DNA of 64,000 nt from Somniosus microcephalus (lineage: Eukaryota). Position 1 is the stretch's first letter; every line of letters starts with the position of its first letter. The notes under the pieces are model-generated. The model saw only the letters and a program-made list of their open reading frames with translations, was not told where the DNA came from and ran no database searches. The position numbers and the translations under genes are program-made. Below are positions 18,264 to 56,859 of this stretch, in pieces. The stretch spans positions 13,206,001 through 13,270,000 of the forward strand of contig CM126220.1 of the NCBI GenBank assembly GCA_052327205.1. The letters are read 5' to 3'.

Positions 18264-18628
18264 TTATCTGTGCCCATAGTCATAATTAGTGGGCGCTGCA
18301 CTGGCAGGGTACATGTTTGCAGTTGGGTTCATGTGGTGGTAGCCATGGCTCGCTATGCCGGGCAGCGGGTAAGGGCTGGGCCGGGCTTTGGCACCGATGT
18401 AAGCATCGTGGTAGGAGCGGTACTTGTAGGTGTGGTGGAGGCTGTCCGGCGTCTGCGTGTGGGGGTCCAGTCGCAGTTCGTGAGGAGGGCTGGGCCGGGT
18501 GAGCGGGTGCAGTCCGCCGGGGAGAGCCGGGCTCAGCACCCGGGACATGAGCTGCTGCTGGTGTGGGTGTTCCCCGTGCATGGCTGTCCGGTTAGGATCC
18601 CGGTCATAGTCACCTCTGGCGTCTCCAT
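18264..18628 (-). CDS. TBX1: TBX1 terminal coding exon
   Basis: Acceptor ttatttgcag|AT; DGDARGDYDRDP...SRVLSPAL...LHHTYKY...AKARPSPYPLP...YDYGHR, TAA stop at 18266-18264; resembles the vertebrate TBX1C C-terminus. Confidence 0.93.
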
Positions 18629-18702
18629 CTGCAAATAAAACGTGCCAAGGTTTAGAGATGCACACACTGAATTTCGACTCACAGGACAACAACTTATCAA
18701 AT

Positions 18703-19197
18703 CCTAGGAGCAGGAGTAGGCCATTCTGCCCCTTGAGCCTGTTCCACCATTCAATGAGATCAAGGCTGATCTGCGACCTAACTCCACATACATTGAAACA
18801 TAGAAGATAGGAGCAGGAGTAGGCCATTCGGCCCCTCGAGCCTGCTCCGCCATTCAATGAGATCATGGCTGATCATACCCGCCACTGGCCCATATTCTTT
18901 AATATCTTTGTTTAACAAAAATCTATCAATCTCAGATTTAAAATTAACAATTGATCTAGCATTTGCAGACGAGAGTTCCAAAAGTCTACCACCCTTTGTG
19001 TGTAGAAGTGTTTCCTAATTTCATTCCTGAAAGGTCTGGCTCTAATTTTTAGACTATGCCCCCTAGTCCTAGACTCACCAACCAGCAGAAATAGTTTCTC
19101 TCTATCTACCCTATCTGTTCCCCTTAATATCCTGAAAAACTTCGATCAAATCACCCCTTAACCTTCTAAATTCCAGGGAATGCCACCCTAGTTTGTG
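18703..19197 (-). mobile_element. CR1 LINE 3' fragment with a second CR1 tail in tandem
   Basis: Two taggagcaggagtaggccatt...ggctgatc tails (about 18705 and 18808); FKSEIDRFL ORF2 remnant. Confidence 0.8.
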
Positions 19198-19204
19198 TAT
19201 ATCA

Positions 19205-19570
19205 TGAATTATCAAATTATGAAGGGGTTTGATAGGGTAGACTTGGAAAAGAAGTTTCCATTTGTGGGGAGTCCAAAACTAGGGGCTATAAATAATAGTC
19301 ACTAATAAATCCAATAAGGAATTCAGGAGAAACATCTTTACCGAGAGAGTGGTCAGCATGTGGAACTCGCTACCACAGGGAGTGGTTGAAGCGAATGGCA
19401 TTGATGCATTTAAAGGCGAAGCTAGTTAAACACATGAAGGAGAAAGGAACAGAAGGATATGTGGATAGGGTGTGATGAAGTGAGGTGGGAGGAGGCTCGT
19501 GTGGGTCATAAACACCTGCATAGCCCGATTGGGCCGAATGGCCTGACTCTGTGCTGTAAATTCTATGTAA
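19205..19570 (+). mobile_element. CR1 LINE 3' fragment
   Basis: atgaaggggtttgatagggtagac...aactaggggc...ggccgaatggcctgactctgtgctgtaa. Confidence 0.8.
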
Positions 19571-20514
19571 CCCGCTCCTGTCCTGAACAGTTGGGCAAAA
19601 GATTGGGAATGCTTTCCACACTGTCCCTCGCTTAATATATTGTGATGTAGGCTTAAATGCAAAGCAAAGTTAACACAGAATAGACTTAGCTATAATGCAC
19701 GAACCCTGCATCGCTGGGTCAATGCTGAGACAGCCGACCGTCTGAAAGTTTGCTTCAATAAATCATGCACGTTTAAAAAAAAATCTAAAAACAACCATTA
19801 CTTCTGTACGGCCAGTGTAAAAAGAAATGTAAATGCTTTTTAAATGTGAAGATAATTAATGATGGGACGGGGCTTTCAATGTGGCTCATTGTTGCGGTTG
19901 CTCGGTGGATTGACAAGGTTCCGATCCAGCAGAGCGAACTCAGCCTCTAACCCTTCCTGAGGTGAATAATACAAGGAGCCTATCTATGGGAGCGGGGTGA
20001 AAGCAGGGTATGTGTTGCATTGGCGCCGTATCTGTCCGGCACGCGCCCTGTTGTTGGTCAATACAAGTAGAGGCTGGGACCGCAAAAACCTTTCTCCCTG
20101 TGGTTTTTACTGCAACGAAAAGGCGCAAACAAAGGATCCGAAGAATTTTGCGATAGAATAATTTAGTTAAACTCGTCTTAACTCGAGGACTCCTTACAAT
20201 CTCTCGGGGGGAGTGGAAGGTTGAGATATGCCGCTATGTAATCCTTTAGGTACAAAGGGTATCAATTATTTGACCATTGCATCATTTCTTTTTTGAATGC
20301 TGTGCTCTGGCAAAAAGTTTATTTCCTTTTTAATGTATGATTAGATATAACATTGCTTTGAAGTGGATGTAGGGTGTAAAAGAAAAAAGCTGTTATTGGA
20401 GTAACATCATTCACATGGGCGCCATCAAAAGATCGTGGAGAATCCGGAATTTGCTTTCGCTGCTCTGGTCAATTAGTAAAGAAGATAAAGAAATTATTAT
20501 ATATATAAATGAAA

Positions 20515-20960
20515 ACACTTGCATTTCTATAGCGCCTTTCACGATCTCAGGTCATCCCAAAGCGCTGTACAGCCAATGAAGTACTTTTTGAAGGCTAGTC
20601 ACTGCTGTAATGTAGGAAATGCGGCAGCCAATTTGCGCACAGCAAGCTCCCACAAACAGCAACGTGATGACCGATCAGATAATCTGTTTTTTCAGCGATG
20701 TTGGTTGAGGGATAAATATAGGACCAGGACACCCAGGGAGAACTCCCCTGCTCTTCTTCGAAATAGTGCCAGGGGATCTTTTACAACCACCTGGCAGAGC
20801 AGCTGGTTTAACGTCTCATCCAAAAGACAGCCCCTCCGACAGTGCAGCACTCCCTCAGCACTGCACTGGAGTGTCAGCCTAGATTTTTATGCTCAAGTCT
20901 CTGGAGTGAGACTTGAACCCACAACCTTCAGACTCAGAGGCGAGAGAGTGCGACCACTCT
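20515..20960 (-). mobile_element. Near full-length Deu-domain SINE inside the last TBX1 intron
   Basis: Same head, central domain and tail as 6587-7031; B box GGTTCAAGTCT. Confidence 0.8.
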
Positions 20961-21299
20961 TGTTGAGTAGCGTATTCACTAAAGTGTGTGAGCAATTTAA
21001 TTTGGGCAATCAGAAGTGGCCGTAGAACGGTCCACAGTGGATGTCGACACTTTCGGGTTTTTAGTTTGGCATGTATAATACAGATCTACACATTGTACTT
21101 AGAAGCAGGGTTGTTAAAAGTTATTCCATTATTCCTGTAGCCTTGAATTGAAAATTACTCTTTAATTTTTAGAACCCACTTCACCTTGCATTCTTTAGTC
21201 CAGATGCATTCTCTAAATTCACACTGAACAAGCCAATTGGAGGGGCTAGGAGTCCTTCAAAAATCAGGAGGGAAACGTTATATTTAATTCACATTAAAC

Positions 21300-21520
21300 A
21301 TGAAAGATCCCAGAAGAACAGAGAGAGTTTCCCAGTGTCCTGGCCCCTTAACCAACAACACAAAAACCTATTTAAGGGGTCATTTGTCTCACTTGCTGTT
21401 TGTGGGAGCTTGCTGTGCACAAACTGGTGGCCAGATTTGTCTACATTACTGCACTTGGAAAAAGTAATTCATTTGGCTGCATGAAGAGCTCGGGGATGTC
21501 CTCAGGACGTGCACGACACG
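21300..21520 (+). mobile_element. Deu-type SINE 3' half, degenerate
   Basis: aaagatccca...gtgtcctggcc...gctgtttgtgggagcttgctgtgcac...gatgtcctcagg. Confidence 0.55.
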
Positions 21521-21649
21521 ATATATTCTTATATTTTAAATATATGCATTTAAAGAGTGCCCGAAGTTAGTTTGCCTGAAGGAAACTGCCGTGCTTGGCG
21601 GTGTTGCCTGGTGTATTTGAGACACAGATCGAGGGCCGCGACACTCTAC

Positions 21650-21747
21650 CTTTCTCGCTGCCGTTCTGTTGCGGTGATGACACCGGGTTTCGATTTCTGG
21701 CGAAAGCGCTGATTAACTGTAAAGAGCCCGGTCTGTGATTCCTCGGC
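21650..21747 (-). CDS. TBX1: TBX1 coding exon (post T-box)
   Basis: attttag|G CCG AGG...; [33 protein letters not shown]; donor G|gtagag; 98 nt, phases fit both neighbours. Confidence 0.92.
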
Positions 21748-21954
21748 CTAAAATATGGTACAAAACTGTTCATTCGAGAACATTTATATCAATCCCAGGT
21801 ACTGTGTGTTCTTTTTTTAATAAAATAAAAACATGATGACAATGCGTGCAAAAAATATTTTCTTTAACTTGTCAAATCTCAAACAAACGTTACAAATCTA
21901 GTCTAGTTATCAAATGAAGTTCGCCCGTCCCTTCCACTCAAGAAACAGGCTTAC

Positions 21955-22022
21955 CAGTCTTCGGGATCACAGTCTCTAAATCCTTTTGCGAATGGATTGC
22001 TTGCGATTTTTAATTGTGTTAT
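21955..22022 (-). CDS. TBX1: TBX1 coding exon (T-box C-terminus)
   Basis: ccctcag|ATA...; [23 protein letters not shown]; donor TG|gtaagc; 68 nt, too short for the ORF track. Confidence 0.96.
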
Positions 22023-24050
22023 CTGAGGGGAATTAAAAATAAATACTTATTTTCAATTAGGTTTTGATGTGAAACTGAATGTTGTATACAATTCTGAAGA
22101 AAAGTTTGACGTCTGTAATTTTTTTTTGGATAAGTAAGCACCTCTCTCACGCTGCCTCTTAAATATCTTTTACTCCAAATACTAAAATGTCTTTAGTGGC
22201 ATTCGAGGGCCGCGAACTCGGGTCTAAATAAAAGTGCACATGCACCCAGAGTGATTTTGCCTTTTTAAAAAATCTGCTAGATTGAGTTCCAAATAAAAGG
22301 TAAAATCTCAGGCCAGCCTTTTAAAAACAACACTATAAATAACTGGGTACTTTACAATATTCATTTATATACCGAGACCGCACGCTTAGCCTTTGTAAAT
22401 CAGGCTGATAGATGTGAGTTTGTCACAGCTTATAAAACCTAGGTTGCTAACAATCGGTCACTTTTAATGGCCCCAATAGCCATTTTCTCCTTTGTTTAAA
22501 TGCGCAGAGGAATCACATTACAGCGGCAGATACAGTTGCCTTAAACCTCTTGCATATATAGCAAACTATTAAATACTATCGCTCTCCGGCATAGTGTTGT
22601 CGCGCACAGAAATGATCAGGCGCGAAATTTTATGTTGTTGTTAATTCATGGCTAAAATATGCCCCTGTAAATGTCCGGAATGGTTGTAAAACAAACTTTA
22701 ATCCGTTATTGACAGTTGCAGACGGAAAGGTCAACTGATGGAAACCAGGAGGCATGGCAGTCAGACTTGGGACAGCTGTTCACAGACATCAGGACCATGC
22801 CAACAGTGTTACACATCGGTATTTCATTAAAAAAACCAAACTGAAACAGATTTACAGACACAGCCAGTATTGAGAGATCTCTTCATATTCTAATTCTTTT
22901 ACAGACTAATATTTCAGGGGTTTGGCAAAAAATCATATTGCCATTGAAAGTGGCATCTAGCCCAGTTGGTGTGTGTATGTAACTGAGCCGCACCACCTTT
23001 GATTGACACTTCTTGCTGTGATACTTTCCGTGGAAATAAAAAATCGCCGGGGCCTTGAATGTACACAGATAATTGGGTCCCAGTGGGTTTCAGGAAGTTT
23101 TCTATAGTCATAATTGCAGGTCGGCAGTCCTTGGGGTTGGCTGAATGTGCAACATTATGGATTTGGAGCCTGAGCTCCCTCAGCTATCAGGTTCCGCGCA
23201 GAGGTTTGGGGAATGAGTTGAGCAGATGCACTGGGATGAGGGTACACCTCTCCCCTGATACTCTCCGAAACAGACTTCAACTCAAAAACGGCAACCGGGA
23301 GCTGCCAGTTCAAATCTGCTTCATGCTCCAAGCTCTCTCTAATCAGGGTTCATGCATGCCAAGGAGAGATGTACAACAGATGACAAGATGATTTAGCGCG
23401 AACATCCAAAGGCATGGCACTGGTGACACACATACATACTTCAATTTTATATGCACATAGCGAGACGGAGCATATGAATCCCTTTTCTTTTTGTTTTAAT
23501 GTTTTTTTTATAGCTGTTTCGACACGCCTTACGTTATTTCAATAAATGTAATTTTCCCCTCTGTGAATTTAACTCCTAAAGGGCACCACAGCAGATCTGT
23601 GCCTTTAAGTACTGCATCACAAAGCGATTACAAGTCCCTACTTCAGTCGATTCACTGCAGACGGCGCATGGCCTTTGTTTGGTTAAGATTACCGATTTAT
23701 TTACAGCTATTAAGTCAGTGCCATGCATTACAACATCGCTTATTTAAACATTTATTTACAATTGAATGACCAATATTGCATCCCCTATTGCGCCTGATTC
23801 CCAGTATTTGTAAACCGTTCCCCTTATTACAAAGGTTAATAAATGTACTCAGTTTATCAAAAAAACAACAGTAATTATGATGAAGAGACCAACCCTTTCA
23901 TCAATTTTCAAATAATTCCCCTACATTGTGCCCAAGCCTTGCCTGTAACTGCAGTAAATTAATGATAGTTTCAGGCTTAAAAAAAAATCTTTCCAGATCG
24001 CCATCGATCATTAACAACTTTGATGAATGAAGTATTGCAAATCCCCGTCA

Positions 24051-24583
<533 letters not shown>

Positions 24584-26229
24584 TCAATAAATAAATAAAC
24601 ACGGGCAATTAATTAATTGAGTGGCCAAAAAAAATGAAAGGGACGCAATGAATAAATTGAATTAATTCATAAGGTGAACCAGGTTTCAATGTGTAAGCCA
24701 GTCAGAATTGCCACTGCTCTTGGTTTTTAAAAAAAATGAAAAGCACTTGTCCTGCAAAAAGCGGATTAAAATGCAAAAAAATGAAGCGTGGCTTCATACT
24801 CTCCACTTCATGTTTATGGTGCCATTGTTGAGCACAATTAAACGGTTAAACTGGACAAATTAAGGCGGTTTGGGAAGTGGAACCAACTTATTAGAATCAG
24901 AACCGTAGAGGAGACTCCCTTGGTGCATACAAATGATTTCCTATAAAAGGCGTGCCTAATCTAAATCACTTAAATAAATAAACATCTGAAATGTTCACTG
25001 TGCAGTCTCCTTTAGGCGCGTTCTTGAAATCAATCTTAAGAAACTTCAACACAACTCGGAGGCGGAACTCCCCAACCGCCCCCCTCGCCCCAACATACCT
25101 CTGACCAGCGACTAAAAACCGACAAAAGTCTTTTAATCACCCAGCACCCTATTCTGTTTCCACTAAACAAATCTTGGGATGAAATACCCATAAACTCGCG
25201 GGTTGCCGGACAGTGTAAGAAACTTCTAACCTGTTTCTAACAGACAGAATTATTTTTATGTTGTCACCGGCCAACTTTTACAAGAAAATGTGCCGAATCA
25301 GAGTGTTCTTTGAGAAAGCCAGCCTTCATTCAAATATTTTAATGTTTAAATCGTCAATTTGTAAATCTATTGAACACCTTAGAAGATGATGTAGATTTAA
25401 TTTTTTGAGAAGCTTGTAACAGAGCCTAGGAGACTGGCACCCTCTCTTAAAAAAATGTAGCGACTTAGGAAAATAAGGGGTGCACTCAAAGCATAACTTG
25501 TAAAAATCCACAGCAACATTCCTGGTGGACACCGATGAACGGAGACTGGTATATGGAAGCTGGGGGGTGTCAGTGAAAGCGCCGTGAAAGTTAGCCTCCA
25601 ACCCGCGTGTGGCCAAAGGACACTTGCCTTCCCTTCCATTATTTTGCATCTTAAAACACGGCCACAATAAGCAGTTGTCGCAACTGATCATTGAGACTTT
25701 TCAGCAGCTTTATAGAAGGTCGGTGGTGGACATAACGGAAGCTTTATTTTAACAGCGAAGAGATGGGGAGGGTTGCTAATTATTTTTACTTTGAACCCTT
25801 TTTCAGTGCAGAACTTTACAAGGATAAAATAACAATTGCCCTTTTGCACTATACATGTTCCATGTAGCGCCTTGAACTTATCCGCTCTGATCTTCAACTT
25901 GATACCAATTCAAGCACATTTCACGCGTCTATGTTGCCTATTTTATTTCGGATGAAAACTCAGCACCTTACATACAAGCCGCAACTAAAAGGACGCCATC
26001 CACAGCACACAGTGTTTAATCCACATAAATCCTCCGCTAATGTAGATCAGAACTAATCTGTGTCAATATTTACTGCAGTAGTTCTGACTGAATAACCACT
26101 CAACATTGTAACACATGAATTCAGGTTAGTACATGATGCGCCAAGGAATGTGAGCGAGGACGCGCTGTGTGATTAGATTTAGCAACAAAAAAATAAGGAG
26201 GGCAATTAATAAAGCAAAATTCTGCGTTA

Positions 26230-26405
26230 TCCGGTCATTATCACATTGCTGTTTGTGGGAACTTGCTGCGTGAAAATTGGCTGCCGTGTTTCCTACATTA
26301 CAACAGTGACCGCACTTCAAAAAAAAAGTATTTAATTGGCTGTAAAGCACTTTGAGGCGTCCTGAAGCCATGAAAGGCGCTATATAAATGCAAGTCATTC
26401 TTTCT
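26230..26405 (+). mobile_element. Deu-type SINE 3' tail
   Basis: ggtcattatcacattgctgtttgtggga...aaaggcgctatataaatgcaagtc. Confidence 0.7.
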
Positions 26406-26984
26406 TTAAATGGTGCATTTTAATAATGACTGCGATTATTATATAACTGCAGCTCTATGCTTCGGTTTAGGAACAATCTGAGATAAATACCATAAATCGA
26501 GAAGTTCATTTGCAATTTCATGACGAGACACAGTCTCCAAAACTTAAAGCTGTCTTTTGCAATAGCCCGTTGGTCATGTCCAGGTTAATGCTGATTTAGC
26601 TTCACTTGGACTGGTTAAAACCGAGGGGACAACAATTTAATTCACCCTTTAACTGTAAACCCCGCCCCCCCCCCCAGCTACATGTACAGAGTGGGGGAGT
26701 CCTGGGGTGGGTGGGGCAGTGTGACCTTGAAGATGAAAGAGTGTTTAAATAGGGCGATTGTTTTATATATATTAATAATACAAAAGCGGCATTAAAAGCA
26801 ATTCTGGCAATGTTCTGAAGCGACGTGCATTCTGCGATGTCAGTGGGTATTTTTTTAAATCTCTCGGGTTGTTGTTGCCCTGAGGCACCGTCAGTCTAGA
26901 ACTGCTCCGCCGCCCATGCTGACTGCAGTTGGGGCTTTTGTTTCTCGCTTTAAAAAAATGTTGACAAAGTTTGATTTTACTTGC

Positions 26985-27086
26985 CGGTATCTTTTGTCGT
27001 CGACAGGTACAAAATCCATGAGCAGCATGTAGTCAGCCATGGGATCCATGCCGAAAATCTTCACTTGAAAAGTCGGGAACATTCTC
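26985..27086 (-). CDS. TBX1: TBX1 coding exon (T-box) ending in a GC donor
   Basis: ctcacag|G AGA ATG; [34 protein letters not shown]; donor CG|gcaagt; 102 nt. Confidence 0.95.
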
Positions 27087-28177
27087 CTGTGAGTGGGGGA
27101 GGAAAAAGGAGTGAGGCGATTAAACCGCGCCGTCAATAGTTGGAGAGCATCCTTTAAAGAGAGACAGCACAGGCGGGCTGGTCCCCAGCTCTCCGACATT
27201 CAGCGGGGTCACAGAGGGGAACTTCAGCCCCTTCCCTCTCTTCCTATTCCTGATATCCCTCTCTCTGTAAAGGACCTGGGCAAGTTTTGATATAAGCTAT
27301 AGTGCAAGTTGTTGTTCAAAATACTCAATTCCTACCTGGGGGAAATCCAACTACACATTTCATAAATAGCTGCTTCTATTCATTGCCTGGATTTCTGCCC
27401 CTATCCGGGCGAATCACAATCACCTTTAGAACCGTGTAAAGGGTTGTGCTTTGCTTAACCCTCGCCTCTCCCAAAATATGGGATCCAGCGGGATCGATGC
27501 AAACCCACCTATCTGGTTAGCTACCTCAGGGGCCTGCAGCCTGGCCCCTCTTCTGAAAATTAGGGCAATGCAAGGGATTGCCATAATAATCCCACTATTG
27601 TTGCTATTTTTCTCCCAAAAAAATGACGACGAAAAATTGTGGAAATCAGCTCCATTCAAATAGTCAGCAAGTTCAAATATAATTTTGCGCAGAAATGAGT
27701 TTCACTTTAGTCGGATCCCAGTGTAAAGAGTTAACCACCAAGTTTGGCTGTGGTCATCTGATAAACTATTATTTTTAAAGTGAAATCAAAGAATCATTTT
27801 GTAATAAATACAGAAGATAAGACGAGAGGCTCCATAAAAAGGATCCCAGCAGGTGAATAATTGAAATTAGGAGATTGCAAACTAGGTTACTGCAACTTAA
27901 TATTGAATGAATTATGTATGCGCCTGTCTAGATACAAGAGTTCAGGCAGCTACCTTCCCCGGCGCAAATTCAGTTAGGAATAATTTAAGGATTTTCTATT
28001 CTGGTCTGTACTTTAGATACAAAGAAAATACATCTACACAGGCTGAATGTCATAGGCTATTCTGTGGTCATGTGAGGCTATTTTACAGGAGTTTTCATAA
28101 GACGTTGCCTTGCATCTAATCCTAACCCTAAAGTAGGCCTTTGCAGAATAGAACTGCTCCGCTTAATCGGGCAGAAT

Positions 28178-28500
28178 NNNNNNNNNNNNNNNNNNNNNNN
28201 NNNNNNNNNNNNNNNNNNNNNNNNNNNNNNNNNNNNNNNNNNNNNNNNNNNNNNNNNNNNNNNNNNNNNNNNNNNNNNNNNNNNNNNNNNNNNNNNNNNN
28301 NNNNNNNNNNNNNNNNNNNNNNNNNNNNNNNNNNNNNNNNNNNNTGTGTGAATATNNNNNNNNNNNNNNNNNNNNNNNNNNNNNNNNNNNNNNNNNNNNN
28401 NNNNNNNNNNNNNNNNNNNNNNNNNNNNNNNNNNNNNNNNNNNNNNNNNNNNNNNNNNNNNNNNNNNNNNNNNNNNNNNNNNNNNNNNNNNNNNNNNNNN
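28178..28500. other. Assembly gap / N run with an 11-nt island at 28345-28355
   Basis: N bases. Confidence 1.
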
Positions 28501-28708
28501 TGTGTGTGTGTGTGAGCGTGTGAATATATGTGTGTGAGTGAATATATATGTGTGTGACAGAGTGTGTGAATACGTGTGTGTGTGAGAATAAATATGTGTG
28601 TGACAGTGTGATTGTGTGTGTGTGTGTGTGTGATTGAGTGTGTGAGTGTGTGTGTGAATACATGTGTGTGTGTGAGTGAGTGTGTGTATGTGTGAGTGTG
28701 TATGTGTG
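28501..28708. repeat. Imperfect (TG)n microsatellite
   Basis: TG/TGA/TA-rich tract next to the gap. Confidence 0.9.
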
Positions 28709-28799
28709 CAGGGGCGCAAGTGTTAATAAAGTTGTTTTCTTTCATTTCCCACACCGATTAAAAAACACGAATTTATAATAAACCAATTTTAAATCTGAC

Positions 28800-28899
28800 A
28801 ATAACAACAGAAAATGCTGGAAAAACTCAGCAGGCCAGGCAACATCCGTGGAGAGAGAAACAGAGTCAACGTTTCAGGTCAAAACCTTTTGTCAAGACT
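28800..28899 (-). mobile_element. Penelope-like terminal repeat half-copy in a TBX1 intron
   Basis: Minus strand AGTC-TTGACAA-A-AGGT-TTTG-ACCT-GAAA-CGTT-GACT plus family body. Confidence 0.65.
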
Positions 28900-29843
28900 T
28901 AAATCTGACAATGTTCATTTCCCTCATAAGAAGATATTTATCTGCTCAACAACATTTTATGAAATGAATGAAACGAGGGGCGATTTCAAACCACAGTCAG
29001 ACTCCGGAGAGTGAAATCTTGAGATAAGGGTGTGCAGATCTACAGTTTACTCTGCCGGGTTTTCGATTTCTTTTCCCAGTTAATTGAAGAAAGCGAAATG
29101 GACTTTTTGTCAAAAAGGTTAGTGTCAAAATGAAAGGGGAGGGGCAGCGCCAAGCAGAGTGGGATTAGATGAGCTGGTTGGTGTGCGCACTCCATGGCCG
29201 AATGGCCTGTTTCTTGAGGGTAACATTCTACGATTCTGAGTGGAGGAATGTTGCCCTTGGTCCTTACTTTCCGGCACAGGCTACACAGAAGGACTTGTTT
29301 CCAGGTTTCCATTCCTGTTGAAGGTTATATTCTCCTGCAGCATTCACTTGTTTCTGGAGAAGGAGCATTCTTTTGTTTTTCCTAAACATTTTTTTTGGGG
29401 GGGGGGGCACACAGGGCGTCTGAGCGGACAATAATACACCGAGTTCTCCTGAAGTTTGTAGGAGTTGAGCCGATTAAAGCCGTTCCCTGCGATCTGGTGC
29501 ATTACATTTTAATTTAATTTAGTTGTGATTTGGGCCAGCCGCATTAATTTGACTCAATTTGGAAACGACAAGACGCTCTGTCAGGGCGTTTACTGCATTC
29601 CAGGGACAAGAGTTTGATTTAACCCCAGTTTGATTTCTCCACTGGAGTTTAGAAAAACCCTGAGTTATCTACAGCCCAACACTCCGCATTAGTCTCACAC
29701 GCTGCGCAACATTTACTTCCCAGGATAAAACTCCTCGCCCCGCTTGAATATCTATTCAAAAATTTCTCTAGGACAAGATATTCCGCCGCATTCATTGCTA
29801 CAGATTTATTGAAGAACGGAATATTTTCTGTTCATCAGAAGCA

Positions 29844-30046
29844 NNNNNNNNNNNNNNNNNNNNNNNNNNNNNNNNNNNNNNNNNNNNNNNNNNNNNNNNN
29901 NNNNNNNNNNNNNNNNNNNNNNNNNNNNNNNNNNNNNNNNNNNNNNNNNNNNNNNNNNNNNNNNNNNNNNNNNNNNNNNNNNNNNNNNNNNNNNNNNNNN
30001 NNNNNNNNNNNNNNNNNNNNNNNNNNNNNNNNNNNNNNNNNNNNNN
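29844..30046. other. Assembly gap / N run
   Basis: N bases. Confidence 1.
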
Positions 30047-30564
30047 CACACGGTACACAATAGTGCATCGCCTAAGCGCCGCGTTACCTGTCCAGGTGGC
30101 AACACTACCTGAATGAGACCTATGTTGACTGAACAACCTAGAAGGACAAATGTAGTCCAACTGTCGCGGCTTTGTAAACGAGGAAAACATTCAGAGATTG
30201 GCAGGGTTCTACCTTTGCAAGCTCTAACTTTATCAGTCTGGAAAGTGGCCATTTAAAAAAAAATTAATATATAGCATTTTTTTCTTTAATAAACCTATCG
30301 GCACAGAGCGGAGCGTGGGCCAAGATTCAGTCAGATGTAGACAATACTGTTTTTTTTACAATTGGTTTCTTCATGTTTCATATTTTTCTGCAATCTGACT
30401 TGTCAAATGAAAATTGCAGTTCAGCCATTGAGTAAATGTGCTCCAAGAAAGGTGACTTGTCACCATGTAATAGTCTTCATGGACTAGCTGGAAAGCCTTA
30501 TAACTTGCAGTTCCTTTTAAATAACTTGAGCATAATTGTACTGACGTGTTTTAATATGATGTGA

Positions 30565-30690
30565 TAATATGTATGTATGTGTGTGTACATATATATATAT
30601 ATGTGTGTGTATATATATAAAAATGTGTTATATATATAGAAATAATGTATGTATACATACACATACAAAAGACAAATACATATATATTTG
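30565..30690. repeat. TA/TG microsatellite
   Basis: (TA)n and (TG)n mix. Confidence 0.8.
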
Positions 30691-33277
30691 CATAACTTTA
30701 TGTCTAATTCTATTCAATATTTATAACGACTTTGCGTAAGGCAAATGCATAACGTGTCCTAGTCACACTTACAAATTAATTTGACATTACCATCTAAACT
30801 CGCCTGAAGCAAAGAAATAAATCAGTAACACGCTATTGAGCAGGTTAGTTACCTTTACAAAATTGGGAGACTTGGCAACAAGAAAAGAAATTTCCCATTC
30901 GGTTCTGTTTTCCCAGCACTGTGCCGGCAGAAAAGGGGTTCTGTTTTTGAAGTGTGTGTGTGTGTGTGTGTCGGGAACCGCAGATACACACAGCCAGGTG
31001 GAATTTTAACAACCATTGTCAATCCCATCCGCGTCCAGTGGCCGAATCATTTCAAAACAAACCCACACTCCTCCATTTCTTCAAATGTCTTTTTTGCATT
31101 CTATTTGGGGGGGAGGGGAGAAGAAAGCCAGTCGGCAGCGCACAAAATAAAACACCCGCAATAATTACAAGATGCTGCGATTCTAGTCCAAAAAAACTAC
31201 AAGCATATTTGGCACTTGTTAAACGGATTAGATTGATTTAATGCCAGGTTATAATATAGGCGAGCCCAGGAAAAACCATCAAGGAGCCAGAATCGTTTGA
31301 GTCCGTGCCATCATACTGATTGCTGTTGTAGCAAAGAGCTCAAAGTACAATGGGAGACAAAGTAATGTAACACCCACATTTACTAAAACCTAACACGGAG
31401 TAAATTAGAGCAACTGAGAACCGACTTTTTAAAAAAATCCTAATTTAAAACTTTAGGCTGCTGTGGAGTTGAGGTAAGATAGACACGGGGCACCCATTAA
31501 TCCAATATTAATGTTGCTCGCCCCCCACCTCCCTGGAACCGCCATTTTCTGCCGCACAAGAGGAGTCCAACTATTAAACAAAAACATTGCCCACTGCAGC
31601 TGAAGGAGCCGAGAGGAAAGGTGATGTTCTCCCTGTTTCAGATCATGCCCAAGTGTGCACTTTAAAAAAAAAAAAGCTGAACATTTCTTGGTAATTAATA
31701 CGTTAGATTCACGTTTCATAAACATTCACTAGACTGGAGTTTAAAAAATCACAAGCGGTTTAAGTGAGATCTTAAACTAATTCGATTTGCTGGATTGAAA
31801 CCTACGATTAATTAGGGATTTAAAAAAAAGTAAAACTGCATTACCAGAGCAACCCACACCCCCAATGCAAACTGTAACAGCTGGAATTTAAATTACTATT
31901 TGTTAAGTCTGTCCAGAACTTCATTACGGTTTAAAAAAAAAATTAAAATGTAAATATGAAACTCTCGGTACCTCTGTCTATATGTGGCGAATATCTACAG
32001 ATCCCGAAAGAATCAACAACTCCAGGGGTAACTAACTTGCCAAGTCTTGAAGACGAGAGACCCACAGAATGTAAACAGCCATCAACCAGGTTCTAGTTTG
32101 TTAAGAATGTATAAACATTTTGCAGAACCTCAGACATATTTCACAGGTCTTTGAATGCGAATACTCGGGCAGATTGTAGCCCGTGTTCTGCTCCCTGCAC
32201 ACGCCGAGCCACTGCACACAGGACATTCTGCAGCTTTACAGCTGCCGAGGAGTGCGGGGGTGAGGTTGGAATTGGGTAAATCACGGGCCGTCTGTTTGCC
32301 CGATTTATCTGGAAATAGTGAGCAAACAGAGTCTACACAAAGCGCTCCGGCAATAGAAGCTGGGGGTCAGAGACAGAGCAGAGCTCCGTTTTCTATCTGT
32401 TTTCACCATCTCCCAGGTAGAAGTTACCGCTCATGCGACATCCTCTCTTTAAGAGAAAGAAGTGAAAGAACAAAAAAAAAACACTCCATACCTGCACATC
32501 TGATTAAATGAAAGAAGCCTGACACCTAACTAACCTCCCGGGCTCGAGTTCACCGCGGGGTAATGCGGTTTCTTAAATATCCTGACATCTACAGCTCTCC
32601 CTCTCTCAGCGACCCGGGCAGCCCCTCTCGGCACCGTCCTGATGTTTCTGCACAATATTAATATTCTGCATTATTAATAGGCTATCTGAGTTGTTGACGA
32701 TCATTGAAGAGTGCCAATCTTGTATTTTGGTTCGGTCCCGTTTAAACACACGTTCCTGTGTTCATTCACGGTTTCGGAGAGCGTAAAAAAAAAGCGGCAT
32801 TTAATTTAAAATTTCTGAAATAAATCTAACCTTGGTTTTTAGTGGGCATGCAAGCACCGTAAACCCAATAGGGAATAGCAACTGCGAGGATTATCCCTGG
32901 ATTTAAACGGTGGGAGTCCATGCAAGATTTTTTTTTAAGTTTAAAATAATGCGTTGGAGCGAGGTTAACTTTTAACTGGACTTTGGGTTTGGTATTAAAA
33001 GGTGCCCATACGAAAAGTCTGCACTTTTTTGGCATATTAATAACCCTGCAAAAACCCAGAATGACAATTGTAGACGCCTGTGTTAGCGAGCTCCAACCCA
33101 AAAAGTTTTCCCAAAGAAAAGATAGATGGTAACAAAAAGTTGGCAAAGTTAATTTATGGTTGGACAAAAAAACCCCATCCCTATTGAAAAACTGAGAACG
33201 CCACACACACACACACACACACACACACAATGTAAAATATGGCGGATCTGTATATAAAACGGTTCTGCAATCCTTAC

Positions 33278-33672
33278 CTTCCCGCTTTGGTGACTATCAT
33301 CTCGGTCCCGAGTTGGTTAAACTCGTCCCACAGCGCTTTCATCTCCAGCTGCACCGTGATGTTGGCCACTTTCGGGTTCTTCTTCACCGGCGCTTTGTTG
33401 GACGCGCTGACCGCTGCGCAGTTGGAAGGGCCGGTGTCGGCCTCCGAGCTCGGTGCCGAGCCGCTACTGCCGAAGCTGCTGTAGGTGTGCTGGGCGGCCG
33501 GGCAAGGCTCGTAGTGCGCCTCGTGGCTGTAGGGACCCGGCTCCCCGGGAGAAGGCGAGAGGTGGTAGCCGCCGGATGAGTTCAAACTACTAATGCTGCT
33601 GGCAGTGAAAGCTGCAACATCACAGAAATGAGAGAGTTGCGTTAACCAGGGGCTGGAGATCGCCGAGATCAT
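33278..33672 (-). CDS. TBX1: TBX1 coding exon (MISA start; internal acceptor at 33611 for the upstream-exon isoform)
   Basis: [26 protein letters not shown]...[36 protein letters not shown]; donor AG|gtaagg; internal acceptor gttgcag|CT. Confidence 0.96.
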
Positions 33673-34583
33673 TTCCCAATTTTATTCCTGGCTTTCTTTA
33701 AAAAAAAATTAAATCTTTTTTTTCCCCCCGTTGCTATTTCTTGCTCTCTCTCTCCCTCCCTCGTCCTTCCTTTCTTTCTGTGTCCTTCTGTGCCTCTCCT
33801 CGGCTCTTCAGTGCGAGAGACGAACCCAATGTCACCGTACTCTGCGCCGCGCTACTGCACTCTGGCAACACTCTTCTTGAGAGTTCTTATCTTTCGCGGA
33901 GGGCCTCCCCTCTCCATGAAACCGGTTCCTTTTTTTTCTCTCTATTTAGATAAGGACCTACAGGTAATGTGGATTTCGTCGCATTGGGACGAAGTCCTGA
34001 TGGTCTGATTGACAGAGCAGTGCGCCGGTTTTTTTTTAATGGTCTTTCTGACACCCATTACTTAAAGTGGGGGCTGGGAGAGAGAGAGGGGAGGGGGAGG
34101 TCGCTTACACACACAAAAAAAACCATTTAAACAATGGCGATCCACGTTTACATTGGAAGCCCATTCAGACACTAACAAACACGGATCCAGCATCAATAAA
34201 TAAATGACATCAGGCTGATTTATCAGATGAAACCCCAAACTCCACACATTTAAAACCAGCCGCGGGTTTGGGGGCGCATTTATCATTTTTTTGGTGGGGA
34301 AGGGGCGGGGGGGGGGGGGGACGTTTCCGATACATTTCCCACTGAACATTAAAACAAAAATGACACACACCAGATCCTACTTTCATATATCGCCTAATCG
34401 GTGAATCGATAGCGATTCGCAGCGCTGAGGTTTGGAGCCCCTAGTGTACGCGGCGAACACGTATTTAAATTGCCTGACCTGTGTGTGAGTGGGATTCATC
34501 CTTAATCTACCTATCTGCATTTATATAGCTTGGAAAAAGAAAAAGAAAAAGAAAAAGAAAAAAGCACTTCGGCCGCCACCTAC

Positions 34584-34764
34584 CTTCCATGTCTCTTGTC
34601 ACGGTGCTAAAATGCATCCTACTGCAGGTTAGACTGGGATCGAAGTGCTTGCCGAGGGCAGGACTCTGCAGAATCGCTTCGTTTCCTGGTTGCGGGCCCG
34701 CTGAAATCAGAGAGGCAATACTGAAAGCATTCGCCTTGCGAGAGAGAGCACTGCTTTCGTCCAT
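34584..34764 (-). CDS. TBX1: TBX1 alternative upstream coding exon (MDESS...FSIASLIS...MHFSTVTRDME)
   Basis: Contains MHFSTVTRDME (ATG 34617), the classic human TBX1 N-terminus; phase-1 donor G|gtaggt joins 33611 to give ...DMEAFTASS; in-frame upstream ATG at 34764. Confidence 0.85.
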
Positions 34765-35089
34765 AGGAGAGGAATCTAAAAGCGCTCGAATTTCCCCCTT
34801 CCTTCCTTCTTTCCTCCCCTTACAACACTGCAACCAAACAGAAGAGATCCGAGTTTAACTTTGTGTTTAAGCCACGGATCTCTCAGATTTAAAAAAAAAG
34901 TTACATGGAATGGGGCCTCCGGGTGTTCAATGTCCTACTGTTTTTTTTCATTTTCCCAGGCGAGTTTTTTTTTGGGTGCAAATAGGCGCCGTTATTACCT
35001 CGAGTATGTTGGTCGATTCATTCATTTAAAAGCTGTGTTCATTTTTTTTGCGGGGGTGGGAAAAAAAGTGTGTGTTTGAGTAGCTCCAT

Positions 35090-35460
35090 TCCGCATGTTT
35101 CTCCGCCCGAAGACGCCGCTAAGAGTTGCCGAGCTCCCCCATTCACAGCAGCTTGGGTGATGTCACTCGAAACTTGCAAACCTACCTAAATAAAGCAGCT
35201 ACTGCAAGGAAAATGTCAAAACTGACGGCTCCCTCCCCGCCCTCTCCTCTCCTCTCCCCCCCCAACCCCTCCACCCACTGCTAGAAATGTGCTTTCCATC
35301 TGATGTTTTATTTGAGCAGGTTCCTGTCAATCATAGGGCAAAAAAATTTGAATCGAGCCAGAAGACAGAGAGAGAGAGAGAGCGAGAGAGCAAAAAGAAT
35401 ATACGTCATTGCGGATGTCCGGCTAGCTCCAGTCTGCCGATGCGCACACTAAACTTGAAC
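35090..35460 (-). promoter_or_regulatory. Candidate TBX1 upstream promoter
   Basis: GC boxes (ccgccc near 35103 and 35237), C-rich tract, GA repeat 35365-35390 and CRE-like TACGTCAT at 35402-35409, all just upstream of the first coding exon. Confidence 0.4.
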
Positions 35461-36950: not shown

Positions 36951-39900
36951 GTTTTGTGCTAACATTGTTTAAGGACTCGAGGCGCTTTCAGCTTGCATTA
37001 TATGGACAGCCGGACCAATGCAGCACGTTTAACCCCGCAGTCAGAATTCTCCATCTTTTTTTCCTGTTATTTAAGACACCAACAAATTCCACTGTTTTGT
37101 TTTTTAAATTTAGAAACGGTCCGGCGTGTTTATTTACAGATACATTGTAGTAGCTTACTTTCAACAAAAAAAAGACACCAGTCTTAATGAGTTAAAGTGT
37201 ACACTGTAGTTTAAAACAACTCCAACTGTTGGCCCGCGTTGATAAAGGAGACTGTACCCGGCGGCTACTCCTGGAGCGGGACAGTCACTGCCAAGCAGTT
37301 GCAATCATTTAAAACTACGAGGTTTCCATGGCCGAATATCCAGGTGTGAGCCGTTTCCCCCTATCCCCGGGTCCTGGGCTTCGAAGCAGAGATTGATTGG
37401 TTTCCATAATGTAGACATATTTTAAGATCACTTTGTGAAAAAAGGTCCCATTTGCTTTAATCACCGGTTGGTAGATTGTCATCGTGGCCGCTACTCCCCA
37501 CAATCCCTCCATCGAGATTTATTCGGATATTAAGAAAAGGGCGTTAAATCTGCGCGAGGCCTGACTGAAGTATTTACTCCTTAAAGTAGCTGAAAGCAAA
37601 ACTCTACAGATAAGAAAGACAAGGTGATTCATGTTCTGTCTGTGTGTAATGTACGAGCCAAAGTCGACGCTTTGAATCATTGCCACGTCGGAAGTGTCTT
37701 TTTTTCTGACTCTCTGCAGGCGTTAAAAGATAAAATGCATTGACCGGGTAACGAGGAACTGTTTAACCAGTCTTTTTTTTGCGGGATGCCCCAGGGAGCT
37801 AGACGCAACTGGGCCAGGGCAGAGCTGGGGCGGGATAGTCAATGTGACTGTCCCGGTATGGCAACTATTGCCCAGCGAGGTTAAGGACTTGAACCAGAAA
37901 CTCATGAACTTGTCATTATTTAACATTTAAAGAAACCGAGCAATTTTTGAGTAGTTCTAGCAAGTTTATCTCTCTCTTTGGGTCTGAGTCTATCCTTTCG
38001 TTTAAACCAACACTGTAACTACACTACATTCAACCCCTCAATGTATAGATTAGTTGGTTGAAAACAACATGGGAAAGCTCCAATCAAAAAAAAAATCTTT
38101 AAACACAATTTTGTTGGAAAAGCAATACCTTTAAATAAGTAAAATATACTCTAAAGGCTGCTGACTGTTTCACTCTCAATCAAGGTCGATCAGTTTAGAC
38201 ATTGCCAGAAATGATTAATGAAACCCTTTCTTAATTTAGAAGCAGTGAGATTATTGTTCGGAATAAAACAATACTTACATTGCAATTGGTGATAAACAAA
38301 CATGTCTTTCGGTACAGTTTCTGTACCAACCTCTCTTGAAATTCCCCAAGGTTTGTGCTCAGGGATGTTCTTTAAATGTTGTTTTTTTTTTGCTGTCCTT
38401 TTTATTGGCCGGGCGGGTATCTCTGGTTCCACTCAATGACGCATCAATTTTACCTTAACCACAAGGTTTTAATTGAATCATTAACGATCAGTTTAATGGC
38501 ATGTGCATTCTATCTTAATCTTACACATTTCCAGCAGATCCAATGGGCGTGCAGGTTAAGCAATCGCCGTTTCCTCGGGCCTCCGCAATATAACCAAACA
38601 CAAGCAACGCACTAAAAAGCATCTGAAAAATATCCATTTCGTACACTTAATATGTATTTCAAGACAAAGCTACATTATTAAATACAGCTGGCATTCTATA
38701 TGCCCATTGTAAATGGCCCAGCATTGCTGAGCGCGTGTTCTTCCTTTGGAACCTACATGCAATCTGTCTAAATTTGTCCAAATGTAAACCCTGCGCTGTC
38801 TACAAACGCACGCACCGAATAGGAACTCCCATTGTTGACACGGGACCTTTATAAATGAATTCTTCAAACTGAAAACCGAGCTTGATTAATGGACCAGTGC
38901 TTTTTTTTTTACTGTCATGTGGAAACTGGGAGCCCTCAAAACCGCTCAAATAAACAGGGGCTTTAACGTGAAAAGGTGACTTTGTAACGTTCATTTATCA
39001 TAAAGGGGAATTGCACAGAATCGGAGGAGGGTGGCTGCAGCATCGGCGGTGGGATCCTTCCTATTACCTGTTCAGACTCTGTTATTATAAGCATAATGCA
39101 GTTTGCGCGGGGTCCCTAATAGGATTAGACAAGAGTTAAAGCCTCACCTTCTCTCCCTTTAGACAGAAACCGAGTTAAAGGTCCTCTTGCTATCAGAAAC
39201 ACACGGGATCGGTCTGGTTAAGCTTATATTTGACCCTTAAACAATGCCTGTCAAATCTGACAGCCCATATCAGGATCTGGACTCTACTTTATTTAGCTGA
39301 AGGCCGTGCAGATATTTTAAAAGTTTACATTCAAACTCACGGGCAAGTCTGAGCACAACAGGTCGGAATCGCCAATCCTGCTTGTTTCTCCCAAGTGCGC
39401 GCAGACAGACGGCTCTCTCGGCCTCACACACCCCGTAACGGACATCAGATGCCAATGAAATTGAGCCATGCTGGAAACTAACCGGCGATAATCGAACTCC
39501 GGATTAACCCGTGGCTGCATCGACTGTGTGTGTGTATGTGTGTGTGTGTTTTTTCCAAACAGGGAGCCTGCCAAACAGAGCTAACTTGTTTAATGACTGC
39601 GGTGTTTAACTCGTGTGCAGCATTGAGCAGGTCCATTTGAAACGTCCCGATCATTTCTCCTTGCAACCCCCAAGTGATCGCTTGCCACTTTCAGCTTGAC
39701 TTTATGTCCCGCACAACGTTTAGCGTCAAACGGCCCGCCATCGCCCTAGTAACCGGTTAACATATTATTGTAACGATATTCAAAAGGTCCACACTGCTTT
39801 ATCATTTGGACACCAGCTGGGGAAATATCGGAACGTTTACGAGACTGCGACACTTACTTGGGAGGGGGTTAAACACTTGCAGGTTTCCGTTCTCTTTCTG

Positions 39901-55062: not shown

Positions 55063-55771
55063 TTCTCTTTTACATAGATCAGTGGCACTACTGGACAATT
55101 CTCACGGCAAATTATTTGGGGACATTTATTCTGCACTTTCCTACATTGTTCTCTATACCCAAGTTCATGCCTGAAAGCTCATTTCGAGACAAAGGCAGTG
55201 ACATTATAAATGCAGGTATATACTGAATTTCAGCTTGAACGGGATGGGCACTCTGGTAAGTACCCGCTGGGTAGGGATGGGGAGTCGGTGCCCTGCAGTT
55301 GAATAGGGGACGAGGAGTTTCCAAACACACACACACACACACACGGTTTGTGAATGTCTGATTGTGCTGTGCTAACCTTCATCGAAATGAAGATATCTAT
55401 TTAAATAAGAAACAGAATTACTCCGAAGCCAATTTACCAAGAAATTCAAGATGGATCCGAATAGGGTTTGACATCGAAACTTGGGAAACAATTGCAATCT
55501 AGAAAATGTCAAACAGTCACCAGAAAATCACTTGGAAAAGGCTGGAGCCCAGCTTGAAACAAACAGCAGGAAAAGCTACACTCGCCTTTTCGAATCTTTA
55601 GTGAGGTGGGGATAAACATTTCGATCGAATTTAACATTTTGCTGGTCATTAAAGATCGATTGCGGATGGAAAAATCTTATTGAGAAATGCCCTTTGCTGG
55701 GCCACCTTCAGAATTCAATCCAAATAATAATTGTTTCTACAGTCAGAGACCTTACAACAAGAAGACCCCCC

Positions 55772-56586
55772 GTGACCCATCCCACTGCCCCCTACCCAGT
55801 GCCCCCACCCAGTGCCCCCCACATAGTGACCCCACCCACTGCCCCCCACCCAGTGTTCCACGCACCCAACATCCTGCACCCAGTGTTCCACCCACCCAGT
55901 GCCTCACACCCAGTGCCCCCACCCAGTGCCCCCACCCAGTGCCCCACACCCACTGCCCCCTCCCCAGTGTTCCACCCACCCAGTGCCCCACACCCAGTGC
56001 CCCACCCAGTGCCCCACACCCAATGCCCCCACCCAGTGTTCCACCCAGTGCCCCACCCAGTGCCCCACACCCAGTGCCCCCACCCAGTGCCCCCACCCAG
56101 TGCCCCACACGCAGTGCCCCACCCAGTGCCCCCCACCCAGTGCCCCCACCCAGTGTCCCCCACCCAGTGCCCCACACCCAGTGTCCCCACCCAGTGCCCC
56201 CACCCAGTACCCCCCAGTGCCCCCACCCAGTGACCCCACCCAGTGTCCCACACCCAGTGTCCCCCACCCAGTGCCCCCAAACAGTGCCCCCACCCAGTGC
56301 CCCCACCCAGTGCCCCACACCCAGTGCCCCACACCCAGTGCCCCCACCCAGTGCCCCCACCCAGTGTCCCACACCCAGTGCCCCCACCCAGTGCCCCCAC
56401 CCAGTGTTCCACCCACCCAGTGCCCCCACCCAGTGCCCCACACCCAGTGCCTCCACCCAGTGCCCCCCTCCCAGTACCCCCCCAGTGCCCCCACCCAGTG
56501 ACCCCACCCAGTGTCCCACACCCAGTGTCCTCTCCACCCTGTGACCCCCACACCCTCTGACCCCACACCCTCTGACCCCACACCCC
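55772..56586. repeat. C-rich minisatellite, unit about CACCCAGTGCCCC(A/C)
   Basis: Dozens of 12-15 bp variants of acccagtgcccc; explains the stacked Pro/Gly-rich ORFs. Confidence 0.95.
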
Positions 56587-56859
56587 GACGGGTGATGTCC
56601 GCTCACAAAATCATTGTGGAAAAAACATTTCAGATAAAAATATTTCCCCCCCCCAGGAAGTAACAAAGATTCAGTGGACAAAGGGTCAAGTGGCGAAGAG
56701 TGAAGCGAATGGCGCATCAATTACTTTAAGCATAAAAATCCCAATCTGTTAAATAGACTGAGATAGGCGCAGGTTTGGAATGTAGAAACATAAAAGAAAG
56801 ACTTGCATTTATATCGCACCTTTCACGACCTCAGGACGTCCCAAAGCGCTTAACGATAT

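Follow-up and report, generated by a model that had tools for sequence, protein, structure and literature searches.

In the 64,000-nucleotide stretch of Somniosus microcephalus DNA analysed here (the window), the 49 codons lying directly before the usual start of TBX1 probably represent the ancestral N-terminus of the protein, with a predicted TLE-binding eh1 motif that would work on a regulated isoform. The segment (M1-R49, 34618..34764, minus strand) is conserved over residues 1-21 and followed by a variable linker, and whether the motif is included likely depends on alternative splice acceptors that flank it.

The TBX1 locus and its first coding exon

The gene lies on the minus strand, as do all the parts of it described here, and is identified as shark-type TBX1 because the closest database protein to the exon is a sawshark TBX1 model (90% identity across the exon). 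Misidentification as TBX10, TBX15, TBX18, TBX20 or TBX22 was ruled out by the named database matches, which are to TBX1, and by the T-box tree described below. The ATG at 34764-34762 reads MDESSALSRKANAFSIASLISAG and opens 49 stop-free codons that run into the in-frame ATG at 34617. This is the canonical start, M50 (MHFSTVTRDME), from which the exon continues (34584..34617) to a phase-1 donor after 34584 (G/gtaggt). An eight-exon model beginning at ATG 34764 gives a single open frame of 491 aa. Its seven remaining coding exons (18264..33611; exons at 33611-33278, 27086-26985, 24557-24386, 24260-24105, 22022-21955, 21747-21650 and 18628-18264) stay in the open frame and hold the T-box domain, which in the closest relative, P0001, is found at residues 150-335 (PF00907). 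The introns of the model end in AG throughout and start with GT except for one GC donor; this intron, after the third coding exon (26985/26984), starts gcaagt and is thus of the GC-AG kind, and the frame of the model is open only with the GC donor. Two eh1-less forms have lengths obtained by arithmetic: 442 aa from the start at 34617, and 451 aa from an intronic ATG at 33672 (MISAISSPW..., 33612..33672, within an open reading frame at 33274-33681) that reads into exon 2. The intronic start is also present in mouse NP_035662 and in other records.

Positions 34570-35355 are matched without a single difference or gap by a contig from a run labelled as a second organism, and assembly error is therefore ruled out as the source of ATG 34764 and its frame. 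Elsewhere in the window, runs of N at about 28180-28500 and 29840-30050 fall within TBX1 intron 2, a tandem repeat that is GC-skewed and contains long frames of low complexity occupies 55600-56700, and the frame at 145-624 resembles what we take to be a LINE reverse-transcriptase fragment.

An eh1-type motif shared from cnidarians to mammals

The eh1 consensus FxIxxI/L has an invariant aromatic residue and aliphatic positions. The motif in the window spans L7-I20 (34705..34746), with the eh1-type core FSIASLI (F14-I20) at 34725-34705 and F14 at 34725. The core pattern FS[IV]xx[LI][ILMV] is matched twice in the window, which has 127,996 codon positions over six frames, and 0.0008 matches would be expected per 49 codons. 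A 15-column profile was built from 22 non-TBX1 rows picked by an eh1-like pattern, only three of which are tied to a name. It scores the window at 38.7 bits, amphioxus at 38.7, mouse isoform 4 at 32.9, Nematostella at 29.2 and human model X4 at 28.9; the window, mouse and human values fall inside the leave-one-out range of the paralogues themselves (26.4-46.5 bits). The original prediction, which placed the motif with the eh1 of TBX15/18/20, is borne out by this paralogue-only profile, as is its statement that canonical TBX1 proteins lack eh1, since the M50 form (-9.7) and mouse isoforms 1 and 2 score negative, with eh1-less forms falling below -9; together with a TBX10, a Drosophila record and a shark splice form, all of these lie at or below -5.9. 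At residues 14-20 the motif stands outside the DNA-binding domain, which begins at about residue 150. Beside the core, two residues of the window differ from the consensus, A6 and R9, where the consensus has P at both. A Pfam search with the 60-aa exon found no family, and a search of solved structures gave one match at chance level (E 0.25). An out-of-frame ATG also lies inside the motif at 34730 and opens a frame of 7 codons that stops at 34709; the fish-type locus L001 has the codons from which this ATG arises, and the mammal-type locus L002 lacks them.

Residues 1-21 are almost invariant from sharks to mammals. An exon-only protein search gave 52 matches among 72 candidates, of which 48 have the full motif, two are partial records beginning inside it and two are splice forms without it. 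Of the 8000 candidates scored with a profile of 12 N-termini, 99 matched; gar, teleosts and many placentals came in at this step, and 40 of 49 new records have the motif. Most of the vertebrate records are gene models and protein searches select open frames, so these counts describe a biased sample of species. NP_ accessions denote curated records and XP_ accessions predicted ones. Mouse isoform 4 (NP_001360867, 529 aa), rat isoform 1 (NP_001402633, 530 aa) and human model X4 (XP_016884417, 448 aa) all have F at residue 14 and the usual start at 51, and mouse isoforms 1-3 are without the motif; similar mammalian isoforms, which had been proposed, thus exist, two of them as NP_ records. Among 85 distinct vertebrate segments (from 120 records), the pattern used for selection itself sets M1, D/E2, F14, I/V16 and L19, and the free columns P6, L7, S8, P9, A11, A13, S15, A17 and S18 are conserved at 0.94-1.0, compared with only 0.27-0.66 in columns 23-30. 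The length of the segment ranges from 44 to 77 residues through in-frame variation of the linker.

A third protein search gave 140 matches among 7999 scored; the matches listed, at least 120, add amphioxus, Nematostella, Acropora, abalone and sea urchin, and the motif is in all 53 new records among those listed. Of the 251 pattern matches in a metagenome scan, 20 were confirmed: Tbx1 loci of fish type (one), mammal type (one) and cnidarian type (17), and a different T-box gene (L006), which was left out of the Tbx1 counts since its motif matches but another T-box gene fits better. Cnidarian exon 1 has an MD start, F at 14 and an ME-G/gt end, as in the shark, and contains no later Met-HFS start. 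This donor is found in 15 of the 20 related loci, with the joined form in three and one that ends at the junction. L005 has an 82-nt GT-AG intron after ME-G that is absent from L003, L004 and L013.

A T-box tree was built from 53 selected rows, with fragments excluded, vertebrate TBX1 rows taken for having the motif, and P0001 standing in for the window. In this tree the Tbx1/10 clade has support of 100/98 and holds eh1-bearing cnidarian, echinoderm (sea star) and mollusc proteins. The TBX20-type and TBX15/18-type clades are separate from it and have the motif too. Each of the three subfamily clades has an eh1 start, as does cnidarian Tbx1, and such a start is therefore taken as ancestral. The motif in other vertebrates and in invertebrates rules out a gain specific to the shark lineage. 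The 49 codons would accordingly be the original TBX1 N-terminus and not an add-on, with the canonical proteins as shortened forms. The original prediction had described an in-frame extension giving TBX1 a motif; its in-frame ATG, 49 codons and motif stand, but the segment is better described as an ancestral first exon, common to cnidarian Tbx1/10 down to the intron position. The records of nine protostome rows of the tree, including Drosophila, and of five TBX10-type rows show no motif, and in these lineages, flies and TBX10, eh1 may be dispensable or lost, or may be missing from annotation.

Several invertebrate records stand out in their own right. Corals have apparently two Tbx1/10-type genes (L020 and P0445-P0449 versus L003, P0410 and P0413), both with an eh1 start. 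In the sea star, model isoform P0338 differs from P0207 and P0339 in that the entire eh1 exon is replaced by another first exon, and eh1-less Tbx1 isoforms may thus extend beyond vertebrates. The invertebrate Tbx1 record P0218 begins only with the final residues of exon 1 (MKDME) and may be a similarly shortened annotation.

Isoforms with and without the motif

An internal splice acceptor lies within codon 22 (34700..34702), where the AG ends at 34701, the exon resumes at 34700 and the pyrimidine tract overlaps the last codons of the motif; its pyrimidine fraction (0.70) is the highest of 12 YAG sites listed. An AG at the same nucleotide is present in L002 and absent in L001. The linker is kept and the motif absent in 23 records from sharks, frogs, caecilians, birds and placentals. 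By identical suffix, their identity to the full forms starts exactly at residue 22/23 in 10 of the 23; by local alignment it starts there in 11, at residue 20 in nine and at 13-19 in three, and in none after 23. The human canonical exon would also use the codon-22 acceptor, as three placental models and L002 suggest.

Upstream of the eh1 ATG, a pyrimidine-rich candidate acceptor (ttgcag ending at 34828) and a 63-nt leader occupy 34765..34828. Once translated, the leader resembles the 21 residues found before the eh1 Met of P0187 and P0190, and use of this acceptor, which we infer here, would retain the motif. Two Scyliorhinus models (P0006 and P0190) have their 28 first residues in common and then diverge, one resuming 21 residues before the eh1 Met and the other at residue 22. 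Because they resume at different points, and because the candidate acceptor at 34828 matches, motif inclusion is likely decided by alternative acceptors on either side of the motif. A stretch at 37435..37518 resembles the first exon common to the Scyliorhinus isoforms with and without eh1 (score 57, next best 26), and no donor for it was located in the window.

The coding 3' part of a putative alternative upstream exon lies at 38279..38303 (ATG 38303, 8 codons and 1 nt, donor gtaagt). It is the best match in the window to the N-termini of the shark isoforms P0186 and P0007 (scores 40 and 44, next best 22), and when joined to 34700 its frame stays open, predicting a 478-aa eh1-less TBX1. The original prediction had choice of start or promoter switch TBX1 between forms of 491, 442 and 451 aa; this is likely not the only means, since the splice acceptor behind the motif would give the further 478-aa form, which that prediction did not include. 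At the level of translation, position -3 of M1 is C in the window, L001 and L002 (a weak start context), -3 of M50 is a purine in all three, and the codon preceding M1 is Pro in 32 of 33 read-through records.

Other first exons are seen among the records. The eh1-less isoforms of shark (38303-38279) and frog (P0140, P0148, P0151 and P0093) have an upstream M-F/Y start some 8 codons before a phase-1 join, and the two upstream exons are possibly one homologous exon. A further type of isoform (P0004, P0014, P0019, P0024 and others) has its first exon joined to a longer exon 2; in the window, no AG for this was found at the matching place near 33664.

A predicted direct repressor form of TBX1

The eh1-type motif likely docks on the WD40 domain of Groucho/TLE, which would make the 491-aa isoform a direct repressor. 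Transcripts that retain ATG 34764, from a nearby promoter or by splicing to the acceptor at 34828, would encode this form, whereas upstream exons spliced to the codon-22 acceptor would remove the ATG and the motif exactly, giving the 478-aa form from the upstream start or the 442-aa form from M50. Leaky scanning may be possible, given the weak context of M1 and the purine at -3 of M50, and the intronic start would yield the 451-aa form. The ratio of these forms would set the balance of TBX1 between repressor and activator.

The closest known parallel is the N-terminal eh1 of TBX20 (F18/S19), which binds TLE1/3 and has the same pattern, LSx[KR]AxAFSIxxL[IM], N-terminal to the T-box. The fish TBX20 record P0272 aligns to the window motif free of gaps, the aligned F being residue 18. 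According to PMC10629681, F18 was mutated to break Tbx20-TLE binding, and both the binding and its need in vivo were shown for mouse Tbx20. TBX1 differs in that its motif is followed by a splice acceptor and two downstream starts, so that the eh1-less isoforms are the canonical ones, and in that TLE binding of its motif is predicted only. TBX15, TBX18, TBX22 and C. elegans MLS-1 share an N-terminal FS[IV] core; the FSI of MLS-1 is required for UNC-37 binding according to PMC3154951, and PMC6071992 attributes about half of TBX18 repression to eh1, with eh1-dependent TLE binding. TBX15/18-type proteins form a clade separate from that of TBX1, with FSVE in their vertebrate rows where TBX1 has FSIA. 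Recruitment of Groucho to Tbx1 through Ripply3, as described in PMC6176997 and PMC3154951, has the same end result, Tbx1 as a TLE-dependent repressor. However, that route needs an adaptor reported as restricted to pharyngeal endoderm in the mouse, and the eh1 isoform would need none.

It might be supposed that the stretch is 5' untranslated or intronic and conserved as a splice acceptor or cis-element, with its frame incidental, which we regard as very improbable. The last codons of the motif are indeed the pyrimidine tract of an acceptor, and over codons 7-19 the window is identical to the fish-type L001 in 11 of 13 codons, more than the protein needs, which suggests that part of the conservation comes from a signal in the nucleotides, for splicing or otherwise. 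Over the same codons, however, the cnidarian-type L020 has none identical, 11 synonymous and two changed, and the mammal-type L002 five identical, five synonymous and three changed. This mainly synonymous divergence, which includes a switch of serine codon family, points to selection at the protein level. The Met is fixed 13 residues before F and linker length changes stay in frame; the motif is kept in L001, where the codon-22 AG is missing; and exon 1 of cnidarian Tbx1 has no later Met-HFS start. Two bird-type proteins with the eh1 start (577 and 584 aa) are encoded on contigs of 1860 and 2283 nt, which leave no room for introns, and L003 contains an intron-less 442-aa frame; from length and the missing introns we infer that spliced RNA with the eh1 start exists in bird- and cnidarian-type animals. 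Two RNA runs with the species label of the window (X4 and X5) placed 9 and 15 reads with no joints and left the segment and most of exon 2 uncovered, so that the gene is unsampled in them.

A peptide that is made and conserved for another partner or purpose (another cofactor, a degron or translational control), and not for TLE-mediated repression, is also improbable, if slightly less so. The conservation spans 20 residues, wider than the 7-residue core, and PMC13308096 reports that eh1 motifs also send factors to TLE-dependent degradation (its T-box reporters being TBX3, 15, 18, 20 and 22), so the main effect could be turnover. The same wide pattern nevertheless flanks the eh1 of TBX20- and TBX15-type proteins, for which TLE binding has been reported. 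Of somewhat greater weight, yet still unlikely, is the view that the motif functions in non-mammalian and invertebrate Tbx1 while in mammals the long isoform is rare or confined to certain stages, with little bearing on 22q11.2. The canonical TBX1c from one promoter is predominant in human myoblasts and HUVEC according to PMC3669123, and the eh1 form may therefore be minor in these cells. The human long form was also found only as the model record XP_016884417, and the mammalian motif scores lower (28.9 in human, 32.9 in mouse). Against this, both scores are inside the paralogue range, residues 1-20 are nearly invariant across placental records while the linker drifts, and the long form has NP_ records in mouse and rat. 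The reading of the 49 codons as an ancestral N-terminus with a TLE-binding eh1 motif is hence preferred.

The sequence itself is already in databases: the RefSeq long isoforms (NP_001360867, NP_001402633, XP_016884417 and shark models such as P0001) have the orthologous N-terminus under record names that carry neither motif nor function. Two papers state that TBX1 is without eh1, among them PMC1310626, according to which human TBX1, TBX10 and org-1 seem to have no EH1. A literature search by title, start of abstract and selected passages, with most subscription journals outside its range, found no paper assigning eh1 to TBX1. The meaning of this N-terminus thus appears to be unrecognised in the literature searched, and appears to contradict published statements.

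A broader proposal is put forward tentatively, at a little under even confidence. A direct Groucho/TLE-binding N-terminus of TBX1 would have been kept since before the cnidarian-bilaterian split and be toggled in jawed vertebrates through an acceptor in the last codons of the motif, with the long isoform as an adaptor-free repressor in pharyngeal mesoderm. Work with canonical cDNAs would then have used shortened proteins, and 22q11-like disease could arise from coding variants in these 50 codons, which at present count as 5' untranslated or intronic. In 22q11.2 deletion syndrome TBX1, the DiGeorge-syndrome gene, is the main gene, and with an eh1 isoform conserved from corals to humans, some 150 nt of 'untranslated' sequence would have to be treated as coding when variants are interpreted.
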